A stretch of DNA of 64,000 nucleotides from an uncultured Acidobacteriota bacterium (GTDB lineage: Bacteria > Acidobacteriota > Terriglobia > UBA7540), in the NCBI GenBank assembly GCA_963804995.1, contig CAWDSK010000006.1:1984001-2048000 (forward strand), given 5' to 3'. The position numbers and the translations under genes were made by a program. Below are positions 5,491-11,272 of this stretch, piece after piece; positions within the stretch are counted from its first letter, which is position 1, and each line of letters opens with the position of its first letter. The notes under the pieces are model-generated. The model did no database searches, had not been told where the DNA came from, and saw only the letters and a list, made by a program, of their open reading frames with translations.

Positions 5491-5808
5491 ATGGCCATGA
5501 ATAGTGGAGTTCTCACTGTAAGTGACACCCTCGATGTTCACGCATTTCCCGTAGATGCGCAGAACGCACTTGAGTCAGGGAATGTCCCTTCTTCTTCTGT
5601 CCGGGACGAGGCCATTCGAGCTCGGCTCGCCGACGTTGCCCAGCAAGAGGTAAGGCGTCGACGCTTGCTGGAGATATTGAGAAGACCGACTCCCGCTTGG
5701 AATCCTGACGACCATCCCGACATCGACGCGGCGGGCGGTGCCGCTGAATGGGTGAGGAAGCTACGCAGTGAGGCAGAGCGGGGATTTGAAAGGCGCACTC
5801 GAAACTAA
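5491..5808 (+). CDS. Putative antitoxin (VapB-like by position)
   Basis: Immediately upstream of a PIN toxin. C-terminal 'W..DDHPDI..G..EWVRKLRSE' pattern is typical of antitoxin tails. Confidence 0.55.
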   Translation: MAMNSGVLTVSDTLDVHAFPVDAQNALESGNVPSSSVRDEAIRARLADVAQQEVRRRRLLEILRRPTPAWNPDDHPDIDAAGGAAEWVRKLRSEAERGFERRTRN

Positions 5809-5816
5809 GAGCGGGA

Positions 5817-6206
5817 ATGATCATACTTCTTGATACTTCTGTTATCATCGATGCCCTGCGCATACGGCGTGGCCGGCGCGAGTTTTTGGACCAGAGAAAC
5901 CAGGCCGGTGACACGCTCGCGTGTTCTGCCGTTAGCGTGGCGGAAGTCTACGCCGGGATGAGACCCAACGAGGCGGCTGCCACGGAGGAATATATTGAAA
6001 ACCTGGTCTGTATCGAAGTTACTCAGGAAATTGCGCGAACGGCGGGTAGCTTGAAGTACGCGTGGGAGCGCAAGGGAGTCACCATCGACATCCCGGACGC
6101 TATCATTGCCGCAACGACTCTTAATTTCAATCTGTACTTGGCTACGGACAATCTCCGGGATTTTCCCATGCCGGAATTGAACCATCTCAACCTCCCGACA
6201 ACTTAG
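5817..6206 (+). CDS. vapC: VapC family PIN-domain toxin
   Basis: Motifs 'ILLDTSVIID', 'SAVSVAEVYAG', 'DAIIAAT', 'TDNLRDF'. Confidence 0.9.
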   Translation: MIILLDTSVIIDALRIRRGRREFLDQRNQAGDTLACSAVSVAEVYAGMRPNEAAATEEYIENLVCIEVTQEIARTAGSLKYAWERKGVTIDIPDAIIAATTLNFNLYLATDNLRDFPMPELNHLNLPTT

Positions 6207-6212
6207 ACCGTT

Positions 6213-7604
6213 ATGCCCACTCTAACTTTTCTCGGTGCCACCGGCACGGTTACCGGTTCAAAGTATCTGCTGGAAGCCGGCGGCGAACGCCTGATGATCG
6301 ACTGCGGACTTTTCCAGGGCGACAAGGAATTGCGGCTGCGCAACTGGAACCCGCTGCCCGTGCCCCCCGCGAGCATCCAGTGGTTGGTGCTGACGCACGC
6401 GCATCTCGACCACGTCGGATATATTCCCCGCCTGGTGAAAGATGGTTTTCGCGGGCAGATCCTGGCGTCTTCTGCCACCGTGGATATCACCAAAATCGTG
6501 CTTCCGGATTCCGGGCATCTCCAGGAAGAAGACGCGGAGTTCGCGAACAAGAAGGGGTTCAGCAAACACGCCCCGGCCCTGCCGCTCTATACATATGAGG
6601 AAGCTTTGAAGGCGCTTGAATTTCTTCGTGCCGTGGACACCAACCAGCCCCTGGAGCTTTCTACGCATTTCTCCCTGCGTTTTTTCTTTGCCGGCCACAT
6701 TCTAGGTGCGCGGATGGTGGAAGTGACGGTCCGGGAAAACGGCACCACCAAAAAGCTGCTCTTCTCCGGCGACCTCGGCCGCTTCCCACAGTTGATCATT
6801 CCTGAACCGGTGGTGCCGGAAGACAGGTTCGATTACATGCTGCTGGAATCCACTTACGGCGACCGCCTGCACCCGCAGGAAGACATTGGCGCGCGCCTGG
6901 CTTCCGTTGTTGAAGACACCGCCGGGCATGGCGGGACCGTGGTGATTCCTTCCTTTGCGGTGGGGCGCACGCAGGAACTGCTCTACCTGTTTCGCGAATT
7001 GATCGAAGATAAAAAGCTGCACTCGCTTCCCATCCATGTGGACAGCCCCATGGCGATCGACGTGACGAATCTTTACATGAAGCACGCCGAGGATCACTCC
7101 CTGATATTGGAGGCGCTGGAAGAAAAGGGAATCAAACCCTTCTCGCCCCCCAACTTGCACTTCGACAAAACCGTGGATGAGTCGAAGCAGCTCAACGATG
7201 CGCGCTACCCGACGGTGATTATCTCGGCCAGCGGTATGGCGACAGGGGGGCGCGTTGTGCACCACCTGGAACGCTGCCTGCCGGATCATCGCAATACGGT
7301 TTTGTTCGTAGGCTTTCAGGCAGCGGGAACACGGGGCCAGGCGATCCAATCGGGCGCTCAAGACATAAAGATGTACGGGCATGAAGTGCATGTGCGGGCA
7401 CGCATCGAGACTATTGAGAACTTGAGCGCCCACGCCGACTATGGTGAAATCCTCGCCTGGCTTAAGCGATTCAGCAAGGCGCCGGGGCGGACCTTTATGG
7501 TGCATGGTGAGCCGAAGGCTAGCGAAGCGCTGCGGCAACGCATTGCGCAGGAACTCCATTGGGATGTCACGGTGCCGACGTATCTTGAACGGGTGACATT
7601 GTGA
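6213..7604 (+). CDS. MBL-fold beta-CASP ribonuclease (RNA specificity domain)
   Basis: Motifs 'THAHLDHVG', 'AGHILG', 'SGDLG', 'ESTYGDRLH', 'SASGMATGGR', 'LSAHAD', 'VHGE'. Confidence 0.93.
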   Translation: MPTLTFLGATGTVTGSKYLLEAGGERLMIDCGLFQGDKELRLRNWNPLPVPPASIQWLVLTHAHLDHVGYIPRLVKDGFRGQILASSATVDITKIVLPDSGHLQEEDAEFANKKGFSKHAPALPLYTYEEALKALEFLRAVDTNQPLELSTHFSLRFFFAGHILGARMVEVTVRENGTTKKLLFSGDLGRFPQLIIPEPVVPEDRFDYMLLESTYGDRLHPQEDIGARLASVVEDTAGHGGTVVIPSFAVGRTQELLYLFRELIEDKKLHSLPIHVDSPMAIDVTNLYMKHAEDHSLILEALEEKGIKPFSPPNLHFDKTVDESKQLNDARYPTVIISASGMATGGRVVHHLERCLPDHRNTVLFVGFQAAGTRGQAIQSGAQDIKMYGHEVHVRARIETIENLSAHADYGEILAWLKRFSKAPGRTFMVHGEPKASEALRQRIAQELHWDVTVPTYLERVTL

Positions 7605-7637
7605 AGCAGGTTCGCAGGGGGCGATGAAAGGGAACGC

Positions 7638-8225
7638 CTAGGCGCCTGCCGATGCACCGGGGGTCGCGCCGGCCGGAGCGAGACCAAGCTGGCTTGCGAT
7701 ATTACGCATCGCGGCTATGCAGAATGTAATATGTTCATCCAGGGGCACCCCTAGTTCCTCGGCGCCCTTGGTAATGTCCTCGCGGCTGACGGAACGGGCA
7801 AAGGCTTTGTCCTTCATTCTCTTTCGTACCGACTTCGCTTCCAGGCTCACAATCCGGTCCGGGCGGACCAAGGAACAAGCCGTAATGAAGCCCGCGACCT
7901 CATCACAGGCAAAAAGCGTTCTGGCCAGAAGGGTGTCGCGGGGAACTCCCGTGTAATCCGCGTGACCCAGAATGGCACGGCGAATTTCTTCCGAAACGCC
8001 TCTCTCCTTGAGAATCTCACTTCCCTTCAGCGGGTGGTCGGGAGCGTTTGGATACATCTCGTAGTCAAAATCATGGATCAATGCGACCACGCTCCACTTT
8101 TCCTCGTCTTCACCAAACTTGCGTGCATAGGCAACCACGCAGGCTTCCACGGCCAAGGCGTGCTTCCGCAAGTTCTCATTCTGTGTGTACTCGCAAAGTA
8201 ATTCCCACGCCGCTTCGCGATTCAT
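7638..8225 (-). CDS. HD/HDIG-domain metal-dependent phosphohydrolase
   Basis: 'MNREAAWELL..YT....LRKHALAVE', 'LIHDFDYE', 'ACDE..GFITAC.LVRP'. The real start is ATG 8225; the longer ORF call runs into the tRNA repeats. Confidence 0.88.
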   Translation of the reverse strand: MNREAAWELLCEYTQNENLRKHALAVEACVVAYARKFGEDEEKWSVVALIHDFDYEMYPNAPDHPLKGSEILKERGVSEEIRRAILGHADYTGVPRDTLLARTLFACDEVAGFITACSLVRPDRIVSLEAKSVRKRMKDKAFARSVSREDITKGAEELGVPLDEHITFCIAAMRNIASQLGLAPAGATPGASAGA

Positions 8226-8343
8226 GGTTTGCACCCCTTTCGGCAGAAGGCTGATTATACGCCGCGCGAGGCTTCGCTCCCAAGCCAGGAAGCGGTAGCG
8301 AAGGCCAAAGCGGATTTGCGCCGTTTGCCCGCACGGTCCTGCG

Positions 8344-8372
8344 TTGACAGGTTTTGAGAACTGCGATAGTTT
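8344..8372 (+). promoter_or_regulatory. Putative sigma70 promoter of the tRNA-Val array
   Basis: TTGACA (8344-8349), 17 nt spacer, TAGTTT (8367-8372); 14 nt upstream of the first tRNA-like unit. Confidence 0.55.
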
Positions 8373-8386
8373 GAAAAGGTTCTCGC

Positions 8387-8742
8387 AGGCCCGTAGCTCA
8401 GCCCGGTTAGAGCGGGCCGACCCGTCGGCCAGGTCTGGGGCGGGAGAAGCAGATAGCAATTCACAGACAGCACGTAGGCCCGTAGCTCAGCCCGGTTAGA
8501 GCGGGCCGACCCGTCGGCCAGGTCTGGGGCGGGAGAAGCAGATAGCAATTCACAGACAGCACGTAGGCCCGTAGCTCAGCCCGGTTAGAGCGGGCCGACC
8601 CGTCGGCCAGGTCTGGGGCGGGAGAATCAGATAGCAGTTCAGAGACAGCACGTAGGCCCGTAGCTCAGCCCGGTTAGAGCGGGCCGACCCGTCGGCCAGG
8701 TCTGGGGCGGGAGAATCAGATAGCAGTTCAGACACAGCACGT
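8387..8742 (+). repeat. Four tandem 89-bp tRNA-Val-derived units with the anticodon arm replaced by a palindrome
   Basis: Units start at 8387, 8476, 8565 and 8654. Each is AGGCCCGTAGCTCAGCCCGGTTAGAGCG + GGCCGACCCGTCGGCC + AGGTCTGGGG + a 35-nt linker. Confidence 0.95.
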
Positions 8743-8820
8743 AGGCCCGTAGCTCAGCCCGGTTAGAGCGCTACCTTGACACGGTAGAGGTCTGGGGTTC
8801 GAGTCCCCACGGGCCTACCA
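8743..8820 (+). tRNA. tRNA-Val(GAC)
   Basis: Cloverleaf: acceptor AGGCCCG/CGGGCCT, D-stem GCTC/GAGC, anticodon arm CTACC-TTGACAC-GGTAG, T-arm TGGGG-TTCGAGT-CCCCA, discriminator A, encoded CCA. Confidence 0.97.
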
Positions 8821-8831
8821 TTGGTTCCTTG

Positions 8832-9083
8832 ATGGCTTTCCTCTAAATCCTGGAGAGTCTGACAACAGGCCGCTTTTACATCGGTTCCACCAGCGATCTC
8901 GACCGCCGCATCGAGGAGCACCAGCGAGGGCACACGCCGTCCACGCGAGGCCGCGGCCCGTGGAAACTCGCTTATCGCGAATCCTACCCAAGCTTGCGCG
9001 AGGCTCGCAAACGCGAACTCGAAATCAAGTGCTGGAAATCCGCGAAGCTAATCCAACAATTGATGGCGAGCCAGCCCGGTTAG
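8832..9083 (+). pseudogene. GIY-YIG nuclease copy 1, with an in-frame TAA at codon 5
   Basis: Reads MAFL*ILESLTTGRFYIGSTSDLDRRIEEHQRGHTPSTRGRGPWKLAYRESY...EARKRELEIK.WKS...SQPG*. Same length as and colinear with copy 2, which has TAT at codon 5. Confidence 0.85.
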
Positions 9084-9136
9084 AGCGGGCCGCCCGGTCG
9101 GCCAGGTCTGGGGTTCGAGTCCCCACGGGCCTACCA
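9072..9136 (+). repeat. tRNA-Val-derived 3' segment (D-loop to CCA), anticodon arm replaced by GGCCGCCCGGTCGGCC
   Basis: CAGCCCGGTTAGAGCG-[palindrome]-AGGTCTGGGGTTCGAGTCCCCACGGGCCTACCA; identical to the tRNA outside the swapped arm. Confidence 0.92.
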
Positions 9137-9148
9137 TTTGGTTCCTTG

Positions 9149-9400
9149 ATGGCTTTCCTCTATATCCTGGAGAGTCTGACAACCGGCCGCTTCTACATCG
9201 GTTCAACCAGCGATTTCGACCGCCGCATGCAGGAGCACGAGCGCGGACACACGCCCTCCACGAGAGGTCGGGGCCCGTGGAAACTCGTCTATCGAGAGTC
9301 GTTCCGGAGTTTACTTGAGGCCCGAAGGCGTGAGGCGGAAATCAAGCGCTGGAAATCAGCAAAGCTAATCCAACAATTGATTGCGAGCCGGCCCGGTTAG
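9149..9400 (+). CDS. Small stand-alone GIY-YIG nuclease (83 aa), copy 2, intact
   Basis: MAFLYILESLTTGRFYIGSTSDFDRRMQEHERG..STR.RGPWKLVYRESF....EARRREAEIKRWKS, with the YIL/YIG, R, H and E catalytic pattern. True start is ATG 9149. Confidence 0.9.
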   Translation: MAFLYILESLTTGRFYIGSTSDFDRRMQEHERGHTPSTRGRGPWKLVYRESFRSLLEARRREAEIKRWKSAKLIQQLIASRPG

Positions 9401-9453
9401 AGCGGGCCGACCGGTCGGCCAGGTCTGGGGTTCGAGTCCCCACGGGCCTACCA
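9391..9453 (+). repeat. tRNA-Val-derived 3' segment, anticodon arm replaced by the perfect palindrome GGCCGACCGGTCGGCC
   Basis: GCCCGGTTAGAGCG-GGCCGACCGGTCGGCC-AGGTCTGGGGTTCGAGTCCCCACGGGCCTACCA. Confidence 0.92.
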
Positions 9454-9772
9454 TTACTTTCAACAATCTAGCAATCTCGCTTGCCTTTCGCGTTGCTCCA
9501 CATTCCTTCAATAAGTGCCTAAGTTCTTGCATCCACTGACCCACCTTGGCCACAACGACCCCACGCGCCAGAGGAACTCCCAACAATCCGGTCCTGAGTT
9601 GCGATGCGTTCGCCTGAGACAACCACGCTGGTAACATTGGCGCATATTTGAGCCCTCCCTGGGCAGGATGCCAGAGGAACGTACCAACCCGCCAATTGAC
9701 TAACACCGGGGAGCCGCCGTATGATCTTGAGAATTCCCAATTTGGAGATTGTCTCCGGAGGTTGTAGCACAT

Positions 9773-10129
9773 ATGGGCGTGCGGAAGCTGAAACCCAAAC
9801 CTGGAATTAATCTCCCCCCGATCAGCAAAGCGAAACTGGAGGAGCTGATTGAGGAAGCAACGGTAGACGCTTACAACGAAGAGGAACAGACGGTCGGGTT
9901 CCTTACGATGATGCAGGAGCACTTGGCGCTCCCTTTTTCGGTGAACCTTCTCGGTATTGATGCTGTGGTAGAGAAGATCGATATGACCCGGGATGGCTGG
10001 ATTGTGGCGATCTGCCGCCGGGGCGAAGTCCGACAGAAGATAGGAATCCTCGATCTGCCACTGCCAACGCCCGCACCAGAAGGCACGGAATGGATCGCAG
10101 CATATCATCACTGGCGCAGAGGGTTTTAG
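9773..10129 (+). CDS. CcbP-like 'calcium-binding' family protein
   Basis: Pattern 'LIEEATVDAYNEEEQ..GF..M.QEHL.LPF...LLG' and 'EWIAAY.HW'. GGAGG lies upstream of ATG 9773. Confidence 0.65.
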   Translation: MGVRKLKPKPGINLPPISKAKLEELIEEATVDAYNEEEQTVGFLTMMQEHLALPFSVNLLGIDAVVEKIDMTRDGWIVAICRRGEVRQKIGILDLPLPTPAPEGTEWIAAYHHWRRGF

Positions 10130-11272
10130 ATGAGCGAATACCAGTATTACGACTTCCGGGCGATAGATCAGGCGCTGACCAAGGCTGACATCGCTGCCCT
10201 GCGATCCATTTCCACGCGCGCCATAATCACTTCGACGAGTTTTACGAATCACTACGAGTGGGGAGACCTAAAGGCCGATCCCCTCAAACTTCTGGAAAAG
10301 TACTTCGACGCGTTTGTTTACGTCGCGAATTGGGGGACGCGAGAGTTCTATCTTCGACTTCCACGGGAGTTGGCCGACTACGGACAGCTCAAAGCTATGC
10401 TTCCCGGCGACGCCGCCCGTGTGCAAAGAGTTGGAAAACACCTGATCGTCGGTTTTGAAGCGCAGTCGGAGATGGATGACTGGGATGATGGCACCGGCTG
10501 GATGGGTTCTCTGCTGTCTCTGCGCTCGGACCTGCTGCGTGGCGACCGCCGCTGTCTTTATCTCGGATGGCTCCTGTGCGTGCAATGTGATGAATTCTCT
10601 GAAGAGGAACTGGAGCCTCCGGTGCCTCCCGGCTTGGGCCAATTGTCGGCTCCTCTCCATTCACTGATCGAGTTTCTTGGAATCGACGAGGACCTTGTCG
10701 AAGTTGCCGCATCGGCTTCAGCGCCGCTGAGCGCTGCCCCGAGCCGGAAGGAATTGGCGGAGTGGATTCAAAATCTACCCGAAAAGGAAAAGAACGATTT
10801 GCTTCTAACCGCTGCGTTGGAATCCGGTGAACGCGGGAAAATCGAATTTCTGCGGCGCTTTCAGCAACAAAATGCAGCACGAACCTTGGACGCACACGCC
10901 GCAATTAAACCCCGTACAGTCCACGATCTTGTAACTGCGGCCAAGACACGCGCAGAAGAGAGAACCCGCCGATTGGAAGCCAAGCGGGCAGCGGAAGCAG
11001 CGCGACAGAAAGCGAAGGACGAGGCCGACCGCGCACGCTATCTGGATCAACTGGAGAAAAGCGAAGGAGAGACTTGGAATCGCATCACGGCACACATCCA
11101 GAAGCGGCAACCGAACGAATATGACAAGGCGGTCAGCTTACTGATCGACCTGCGCGATCTTGCCGTCCGCAAGCAACGTGTTTCTGAATTTCAGTCAGCG
11201 CTGGAGGAACTCCGCCATGCGCACGCCGCCAAGCACAGTTTTCTACGCCGGCTGGAGAAGGCAGAGTTTTGA
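10130..11272 (+). CDS. Conserved hypothetical protein (MSEYQYY-type)
   Basis: 380-aa ORF abutting the previous gene, beginning 'MSEYQYYDFRAIDQAL' and containing 'YFDAFVYVANWGTR'. Confidence 0.75.
   Translation: MSEYQYYDFRAIDQALTKADIAALRSISTRAIITSTSFTNHYEWGDLKADPLKLLEKYFDAFVYVANWGTREFYLRLPRELADYGQLKAMLPGDAARVQRVGKHLIVGFEAQSEMDDWDDGTGWMGSLLSLRSDLLRGDRRCLYLGWLLCVQCDEFSEEELEPPVPPGLGQLSAPLHSLIEFLGIDEDLVEVAASASAPLSAAPSRKELAEWIQNLPEKEKNDLLLTAALESGERGKIEFLRRFQQQNAARTLDAHAAIKPRTVHDLVTAAKTRAEERTRRLEAKRAAEAARQKAKDEADRARYLDQLEKSEGETWNRITAHIQKRQPNEYDKAVSLLIDLRDLAVRKQRVSEFQSALEELRHAHAAKHSFLRRLEKAEF

Follow-up and report, generated by a model that had tools for sequence, protein, structure and literature searches.

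How does a bacterial tRNA gene come to stand among six altered copies of itself, every one with its anticodon arm exchanged for a short palindrome, and beside two genes for a very small GIY-YIG nuclease? The locus that raises this question occupies positions 8344..9453 of a 64-kb stretch of DNA from an uncultured Acidobacteriota bacterium; the whole stretch is referred to here as the window, its numbering is used throughout, and all features of the locus lie on its plus strand. The answer that we favour, and consider somewhat better than evenly probable, is that the locus carries a selfish pair, in which a GIY-YIG gene of the Slx1/UPF0213 type, docked at a tRNA gene, is partnered by a cognate CCG..CGG palindrome of 16–21 nucleotides (nt) that replaces hairpins in DNA. 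The architecture of the locus, the co-occurrence of gene and palindrome, the replacement of hairpins, the polarity of the tRNA copies, the empty alleles in related genomes, and purifying selection on the gene have all been seen directly.

A tRNA gene and its substituted copies

The features of the locus are as follows.

8344..8372, plus strand: predicted promoter of the host tRNA, with −35 TTGACA at 8344, a 17-nt spacer, and −10 TAGTTT at 8367
8387..8475, plus strand: upstream unit 1, non-coding; tRNA nt 1–28, palindrome 8415–8430, tRNA nt 46–55, and a 35-nt spacer
8476..8564, plus strand: upstream unit 2, identical to unit 1; palindrome 8504–8519
8565..8653, plus strand: upstream unit 3; palindrome 8593–8608
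8654..8742, plus strand: upstream unit 4; palindrome 8682–8697
8743..8820, plus strand: intact tRNA-Val(GAC), called by ARAGORN; Rfam score 67.8 bits
8832..9083, plus strand: GIY-YIG copy 1, a pseudogene with TAA at codon 5 (8844–8846)
9072..9136, plus strand: downstream copy 1; tRNA nt 13–28, imperfect palindrome 9088–9103, and tRNA nt 46–78 with CCA
9149..9400, plus strand: GIY-YIG copy 2, intact, 83 residues, predicted Slx1/UPF0213-like nuclease domain
9391..9453, plus strand: downstream copy 2; tRNA nt 15–28, palindrome 9405–9420, and tRNA nt 46–78

A 16-nt palindrome of the form CCGA...TCGG occupies the exact place of the 17-nt anticodon stem-loop in six of six copies; in the intact gene the segment that has been swapped out is the arm at 8771–8787. 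The upstream units lack the T-loop, the 3′ strand of the acceptor stem and the CCA, and the downstream copies lack the 5′ strand of the acceptor stem. Much of this layout had been read correctly in a first-pass annotation of the window: the promoter, the four 89-bp units and the intact tRNA-Val(GAC) are borne out by the sequence, TRF, ARAGORN and Rfam, as is the loss of the anticodon arm from six derived copies that keep the flanking tRNA sequence, and no terminator-like site was found on the plus strand between 8100 and 9800. The same annotation treated the repeating unit as tRNA-derived and missed that its conserved part is the palindrome and not the tRNA sequence. It also described two successive pairs of a GIY-YIG gene and a tRNA 3′ copy; two such cassettes of ∼317 bp do follow the tRNA gene, each an open reading frame (ORF) of the GIY-YIG type with a partial tRNA copy, but the first gene is broken by its early stop. 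The terminal TAG of that first gene doubles as tRNA nt 22–24 of downstream copy 1.

The four upstream units form an 89-bp tandem array with a TRF score of 719. Units 3 and 4 differ from the identical units 1 and 2 at 3–4 sites, with 0–4 differing bases across the array, which to judge from its sequence is recent. The −10 element TAGTTT is too weak for the promoter to pass a consensus scan; the promoter is kept directly 5′ of tRNA-Val in six empty alleles of congeners (L251, L253, L255, L258, L259 and L262). Among 72 tRNA calls in the genome the gene at 8743–8820 is the only one for Val(GAC), and is therefore likely to be essential; its sequence is identical in 15 congeners. No multi-copy pattern with substituted palindromes occurs at other tRNA genes of the same genome, and no tyrosine or serine integrase ORF lies between 8344 and 9453.

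Four of 21 listed sequencing runs were compared with the locus, all of them as contigs. One DNA run, possibly of the source sample, contains near-identical pieces covering 8200–8375 and 9178–9389, none of which spans the array, and a further contig joins 8380 to 8722, where the repeat may have collapsed in assembly, the allele may be shorter or the DNA may come from another organism. Three RNA runs, likewise at the level of contigs, matched only tRNA-like stretches from other organisms. The count of four units rests on the assembly, since no run spans the array.

The nuclease and its two genes

The 83-residue protein matches PF01541 at 53.7 bits against a cut-off of 22.6 (E 2.6e-14), with a weak match to PF10544 besides, and consists of a bare GIY-YIG domain without auxiliary domains. 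Residues Y5, Y16, G18, R26, E62 and K66 are invariant among 37 homologues, and H30 is conserved in at least 90% of them. A structure model has a pLDDT of 90.9, and the nearest structures by both profile and fold are the UPF0213 entries 1zg2 and 1ywl, followed by Slx1, ahead of I-TevI and UvrC; the titles of the Slx1 entries among the closest structures name the processing of branched and flap DNA. The protein is predicted to be a nuclease. Its closest named relative (70%) belongs to Candidatus Acidiferrales, which points to a probable host in the Acidobacteriota. Searches of 50,697 phage and 72,556 plasmid records gave no match, and the protein does not match the RAYT (HUH-Y1 transposase) models of NCBIfam.

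The two gene copies differ at 40 of 252 nt, with a synonymous divergence (dS) of 0.72 and a non-synonymous divergence (dN) of 0.08; a dN/dS of ∼0.11 places the gene under purifying selection. Copy 1 is as near to the gene of a congener, G006 (dS 0.61), as to its neighbour. A dS of 0.72 rules out a recent duplication of the two cassettes, so that they must represent either separate arrivals or an old pair that remained under selection until copy 1 was broken. The proposal that the module amplifies itself therefore fits the 89-bp array but not the cassettes.

Recurrence of the nuclease and palindrome at tRNA genes

The first-pass annotation had suggested an integrase-free module, associated with a tRNA gene and built from a small GIY-YIG nuclease and a hairpin, and had asked whether it recurs with substituted anticodon arms at tRNA genes of other isotypes. 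It does so across many isotypes and phyla, and this recurrence, together with the lack of an integrase ORF, supports the suggested module. Distinct loci of strong homologues were defined by a score of at least 78 bits (n = 56; L028 and L029, with partial hits of 28 residues, were excluded). A tRNA gene lies within 500 bp at 45 of these 56 loci (21/24 from across GTDB and 24/32 from the class) and at 10 of 25 weaker loci, as compared with 0.6% of random sites in the genome of the window. The tRNA genes are of the isotypes Val, Ala, Ile, Met, Asn, Pro, Arg, Gln, Ser, Lys, Phe, Gly, Asp and Trp, and the hosts include members of the Acidobacteriota, Bacteroidota, Thermodesulfobacteriota, Deltaproteobacteria and candidate phyla, among them the Gillisia and Roseivirga genomes of L027 and L011. 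Many of the homologue loci have partial tRNA copies with a palindrome, and many have a single copy.

A CCG-type palindrome flanks the gene in 38 of the 56 strong loci, against a background of 17% under a similar rule. The exact swap of an anticodon arm is seen in 35 of 62 listed rows of loci that were found through the protein (some loci are repeated among the rows), where the position of the palindrome was not forced. Other parts of the tRNA can also be replaced, including the D arm in L008, the T arm in L005 and, elsewhere, the T-loop, and in the Met, Asn and Arg clades palindromes with CCGC or CCGT cores replace inverted repeats of 8–12 nt rather than tRNA arms. In a tree of 127 proteins (79 columns), the clade of the window's protein (15 rows) is found at Val(GAC) wherever a tRNA gene is seen, and palindromes of the GG..CC type accompany 14 of its members. 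Palindrome type requires 28 changes on this tree, as compared with at least 47 in shuffles, and tRNA isotype requires 38, as compared with at least 62. Palindrome type is not simply bound to the host, as G214 shows: this single genome has three nuclease loci, with three palindrome types between them. Two further placements were noted among homologue loci: at L011:1760-1800 a tRNA-Ala copy has another kind of palindrome within one of its 4-bp palindromic sites, and at L010:2333-2380 the CCGA palindrome occupies the loop of a hairpin that resembles a terminator.

The association can also be approached from the DNA, with a pattern of tRNA arms around a CCGA..TCGG core in which the outer bases were left free. 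A scan of metagenomes gave at least 121 such loci (41 with short flanks), and the free bases pair in 89 of the matches listed. Among these matches, the nuclease is present at 47 of the 89 palindromic loci, without exception on the same strand, and a tRNA gene at 61, whereas the 32 non-palindromic loci include none with the nuclease and three with a tRNA gene (Fisher 6e-9 for the nuclease contrast). In viral contigs the nuclease accompanies three of four palindromic and 0 of 33 non-palindromic matches, and in genomes of the class it is present at 17 of 19 distinct non-self loci. Nuclease, palindrome and tRNA gene stand together on the IMG/VR contigs L063, L077 and L078; in L063 and L077 they lie at contig ends, which may be the host flanks of prophages. 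The outer bases of the palindrome covary (TC..GA, GG..CC, CT..AG, GT..AC and CC..GG) while the loop is free, which indicates that the conserved item is a hairpin with a fixed core.

The copies have a marked polarity, as seen in 126 anticodon-arm copies at 79 loci from which overlapping duplicates had been removed. The 3′ end of the tRNA is reached in 0 of 62 upstream copies, and the 5′ end is included in 42 of them, often with the promoter region. Conversely, the 5′ end is held by one of 64 downstream copies, of which 42 reach the 3′ end. Beyond the palindrome usually only ∼10 nt of tRNA sequence are retained. We infer that this polarity is the residue expected of duplication around a break at the arm, when survivors keep one whole gene. 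ARAGORN calls some substituted copies tRNAs, some of them with false or stop anticodons (L145, L155, L170, L172, L178, L192, L193, L198 and L213), which suggests that full-length substituted genes exist.

Empty and filled alleles in related genomes

The tRNA-Val(GAC) locus was compared with 21 others in the genus, after L270 had been dropped, and the empty and partly filled alleles that had been anticipated in relatives were found. G006 has two upstream units, one GIY-YIG gene and one downstream copy; another congener has a single unit with no gene within the flank; and two more have what seems, when judged by eye, to be a decayed unit, with the nuclease absent. The tRNA-Val gene itself is the same in carriers and in empty alleles. 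The sequence 3′ of the final copy in the window can be aligned to that directly 3′ of the intact tRNA gene in the empty alleles L251 and L252 (scores of 131 and 94), as compared with scores of 15–32 for other empty or unit-only loci. The match to these two alleles identifies the cassettes as insertions that carry a duplicated 3′ part of the tRNA.

Hairpin replacement outside tRNA genes

The genome of the window contains 299 palindromes of the form YCCCGA..TCGGGR, and 323 matches to the pattern as compared with four for a reversed control. Most of the dispersed palindromes lie within other REP-like repeats, and many of the palindromes are in repeats of the GTAG type. The same flanks enclose an unrelated insert in 22 of 211 flank pairs, and in 17 of these 22 the insert seen most often forms a hairpin of at least 4 bp that closes precisely at the boundary; in one repeat family the palindrome is found at seven sites and the family's own hairpin at 87. 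These swaps between identical flanks indicate that hairpins are replaced by hairpins outside tRNA genes as well, which favours a process acting at the level of DNA and disfavours selection for a tRNA mimic. In five genomes of other phyla the palindromes also exceed the reversed control (70 against 17, 55 against 15, 22 against 8, 20 against 0, and 15 against 6).

Abundance of the palindrome is linked to the nuclease. Of 201 genomes of the class, 32 have a strong homologue, and 13 of these contain 40 or more palindromes, as compared with six of the 169 others (within-family permutation p 0.0009). RAYT genes are present in 172 of the 201 genomes, a distribution that is nearly universal and thus uninformative, and the number of RAYT copies among the matches listed was therefore used as the control. 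By this measure the link persists both in RAYT-rich genomes (7/10 with a homologue, 4/18 without) and in RAYT-poor ones (6/22 and 2/151, respectively).

Several other repeat families are abundant in the genome of the window, with elements of the CCCTCACCC..CCTCTCCC type present in 150–250 copies. The genome also has, outside the window, another and more distant stand-alone GIY-YIG gene (33% identical; G000:C6:1226340-1226579). Several GTC-tagged, imperfect palindromic repeats stand on either side of this gene, and no tRNA gene flanks it. Its REPtron-like layout may reflect another GIY-YIG subfamily that mobilizes CGTC-type repeats; CGTC repeats with no neighbouring transposase are described in the accessible part of PMC3733652.

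A proposed mechanism and its difficulties

We infer the cutting, binding and mobility of the pair from these patterns, and the palindrome is predicted to be the cognate site of the nuclease. Slx1 nicks branched DNA. In a similar way the small nuclease would bind the extruded palindrome hairpin and nick hairpins at their bases. Recombination or repair by the host would then copy the palindrome, and sometimes the gene, over the cut hairpin by means of arms of ∼10 nt on each side. At an essential tRNA gene the only survivors would be products that retain one intact copy: an upstream duplicate would consist of the tRNA 5′ part, the palindrome and ∼10 nt, and a downstream duplicate of ∼10–16 nt, the palindrome and the tRNA 3′ part, often with the nuclease gene between the copies. 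The tRNA gene could supply a promoter as well as conserved homology arms for spread between relatives, and tRNA genes might serve as docks because they are conserved, transcribed and rich in hairpins. Nicks at resident palindromes may also favour local tandem amplification, as in the 4 × 89-bp array.

Several observations weigh against this interpretation. We know of no strand-transfer step for a hydrolytic GIY-YIG domain, so that copying must rely on host functions. The association is incomplete: 18 of the 56 strong loci have no CCG-type palindrome within 500 bp, 42 of the 89 palindromic metagenome loci among the matches listed have no visible nuclease (many are short), and fewer than 40 palindromes are present in 19 of the 32 class genomes that carry a strong homologue. 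RAYT-rich genomes are also rich in palindromes (11/28, as compared with 8/173 of the others, among the matches listed), and REP-like families could have multiplied the palindromes embedded in them by a route of their own. The outer pairs of the window's palindrome are GG..CC, those of the 299 dispersed ones are TC..GA or CC..GG, and GGCCGAC..GTCGGCC occurs at only five sites elsewhere in the genome; given this mismatch of variants, the nuclease copy in the window may not have spread the dispersed set. Finally, the tree signals are confounded by kinship and come from only 79 columns, the count of exact boundaries in loci found by the DNA pattern is partly inherent in that pattern, and there are exceptions to the polarity in other clades (L005 and L008).

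Alternative explanations

A homing endonuclease would account for part of the data. A free-standing enzyme like SegB might cut the anticodon region of the empty allele, with the substituted copies acting as resistant homology arms, and the clade-specific tie to one tRNA isotype, the existence of empty cognate alleles, and the stacking of two divergent cassettes at one site would all be expected. There is a precedent in the phage GIY-YIG enzyme SegB, which, according to the accessible part of PMC13096335, adjoins tRNA genes, cuts within them and drives amplification. We nevertheless regard homing as unlikely here. Filled alleles retain an intact target beside the nuclease, so only a site spanning the junction could differ between filled and empty alleles, and an immune site could have any sequence, whereas a CCG..CGG core is shared by the palindromes of different phyla. 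The bare catalytic domain is nearer to Slx1/UPF0213 than to I-TevI and has no match in the phage and plasmid records, and homing leaves the palindromes in non-tRNA hairpins unexplained.

A shade less probable still is the spread of the palindromes by RAYT/HUH transposases or some other factor, with the GIY-YIG protein as a passenger or as a domesticated cruciform-resolving enzyme that limits damage. RAYT-family matches number at least 16 in the genome, many of its dispersed palindromes lie inside GTAG-type repeats, RAYT-rich genomes are palindrome-rich as noted above, and purifying selection would fit a benefit to the host equally well. Against this, it is the GIY-YIG gene and not a RAYT gene that is found within ∼300 bp of the palindrome-tRNA copies, the association with the nuclease persists inside RAYT strata, the palindrome has no GTAG foot at tRNA sites, and the gene is patchily distributed and sometimes broken.

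The copies could also act as RNA, and the first-pass annotation had entertained a tRNA mimic, decoy or guide. Type III toxin-antitoxin systems (ToxIN-like) have tandem non-coding repeats 5′ of a nuclease gene, an arrangement that the array resembles; its transcript might then be processed to a tRNA-like antitoxin, a decoy against anticodon nucleases, or a guide. A single predicted transcript, arm swaps so exact that a hairpin is preserved in place, full-length substituted tRNAs at some loci, and a mascRNA-like score of 25.8 bits for downstream copy 2 are all compatible with such a role, although that score, as with the other downstream copy, falls below the Rfam cut-off (42.5), and in an Rfam scan of the locus only the intact tRNA passes, with no tRNA match for any copy. 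We consider an RNA-level system improbable: no copy among the six combines both acceptor strands with a T arm, so that a cloverleaf is not possible and the predicted folds are not cloverleaves; arrays are optional, with many loci single-copy; units occur without the gene at L248, L103 and L112; and the palindrome also replaces non-tRNA hairpins and inverted repeats that are not tRNA arms. The repeats differ from those of type III systems in being derived from a host tRNA and in having no terminator between array and gene.

Neutral duplication or an assembly artefact is scarcely credible and, for the architecture, already refuted: no read set spans the array and one contig joins 8380 to 8722, but the same architecture recurs with different sequences in many independent genomes, nuclease genes are found at 0 of 65 non-palindromic control matches (the metagenome matches listed plus the viral contigs), and dN/dS is ∼0.11.

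Genes around the element

The HD-hydrolase gene that the first-pass annotation named alongside tRNA-Val is not a constant companion of the locus: an HD gene is present at none of the 21 other tRNA-Val loci within ∼1.5 kb, and it was rejected as a partner. The divergent HD-domain gene belongs to a group of genes at 5491–7604 and 7638–8228 that also includes a 105-residue ORF, a PIN-domain gene and an MBL/beta-CASP hydrolase; the first two of these are likely to be a toxin-antitoxin pair, and no link was seen between the genes at 5491–8228 and the element. On the 3′ side, at 9749–11272, lie a CcbP-like ORF (with a Pfam match below the strong level) and a 380-residue ORF without a family, the start of which is also found just 3′ of tRNA-Val in L252. 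These ORFs are probably island or conserved cargo unrelated to the cassette. Six congeners (G026, G018, G008, G013, G002 and G007) have extra copies of tRNA-Val nt 34–78 or 1–40 in the pattern of integrase att sites; on the evidence of these sequences tRNA-Val is also an island hotspot in the genus. Elsewhere in the genome, 26 tRNA genes within ∼4.2 kb form a second near-complete tRNA set (G000:C5:1304904-1309125).

Relation to known systems and significance

The integrase islands found at tRNA genes, tRNA-Val in congeners included, similarly leave an intact gene and a duplicated tRNA part. The cassettes differ from them in having no integrase and a cargo of only ∼250 bp, in the foreign palindrome that interrupts their tRNA sequence, and in occurring in upstream as well as downstream forms.

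REPtrons are close in logic. In the accessible parts of PMC6006769 and PMC3733652 they are described as a gene for a small nuclease with a short palindrome at its flanks, hundreds of copies of which are scattered more widely; each protein type is paired with its own repeat type, and the distribution is patchy. Here too the flanking palindrome is dispersed, as 299 copies of a variant with other outer bases. In contrast to REPtrons, the enzyme is a GIY-YIG protein and not an HUH-Y1 transposase, there is no GTAG/GTGG foot, tRNA sequence flanks all six copies in the window and those at related tRNA loci, the gene lies at tRNA genes within partial duplications, and the palindrome replaces existing hairpins. 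SegB shares with the present system a GIY-YIG gene beside tRNA genes of many isotypes and nuclease-dependent tandem amplification by recombination, but it is carried by phages and requires only a loose motif in the duplex DNA that it cuts, and neither a cognate palindrome nor arm-substituted tRNA copies are described for it in the accessible part of PMC13096335. The target tRNA of the present system is unaltered in the carrier allele, and its protein has no match in the phage collection. UPF0213 and stand-alone Slx1-like proteins have the same domain and fold; a survey of the family predicted roles in DNA repair and noted links to methyltransferases and a TrmH fusion, with no mention of docking at tRNA genes or of palindromes in its accessible part (PMC1564403). 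The literature covered holds no description of a GIY-YIG, tRNA and palindrome arrangement, although subscription papers and supplements were mostly outside that coverage and absence is unproven. By its enzyme the family is new, and by its logic it is likely to group as the GIY-YIG counterpart of REPtrons.

A bolder generalization, somewhat less likely than not, is that this is a widespread minimal mobile element, in which a Slx1-like nuclease of 80 residues lets a 16-nt palindrome overwrite hairpins from the base, the tRNA gene serves as dock and promoter, and clades of the enzyme have co-evolved with CCGA, CCGC, CCGT and CCGG cores; stand-alone GIY-YIG proteins might then in general be the missing mobilizers of palindromic repeats that have no RAYT. 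For genome annotation there is a practical hazard, in that substituted copies of full length are annotated as tRNAs and given anticodons that are false. If the favoured interpretation is true, it would give a role to a very large family without a known function: the profile matches 11,354 clusters at 50% identity (E ≤ 1e-10), including relatives that are not tied to tRNA genes. The cassette, at ∼317 bp, would be among the smallest autonomous cassettes known, and would represent a new mode of mobility in which one hairpin is exchanged for another without an integrase, transposase or reverse transcriptase. It would also explain how such palindromes spread through genomes, and so offer a testable answer to the spread of short palindromic repeats without RAYT.

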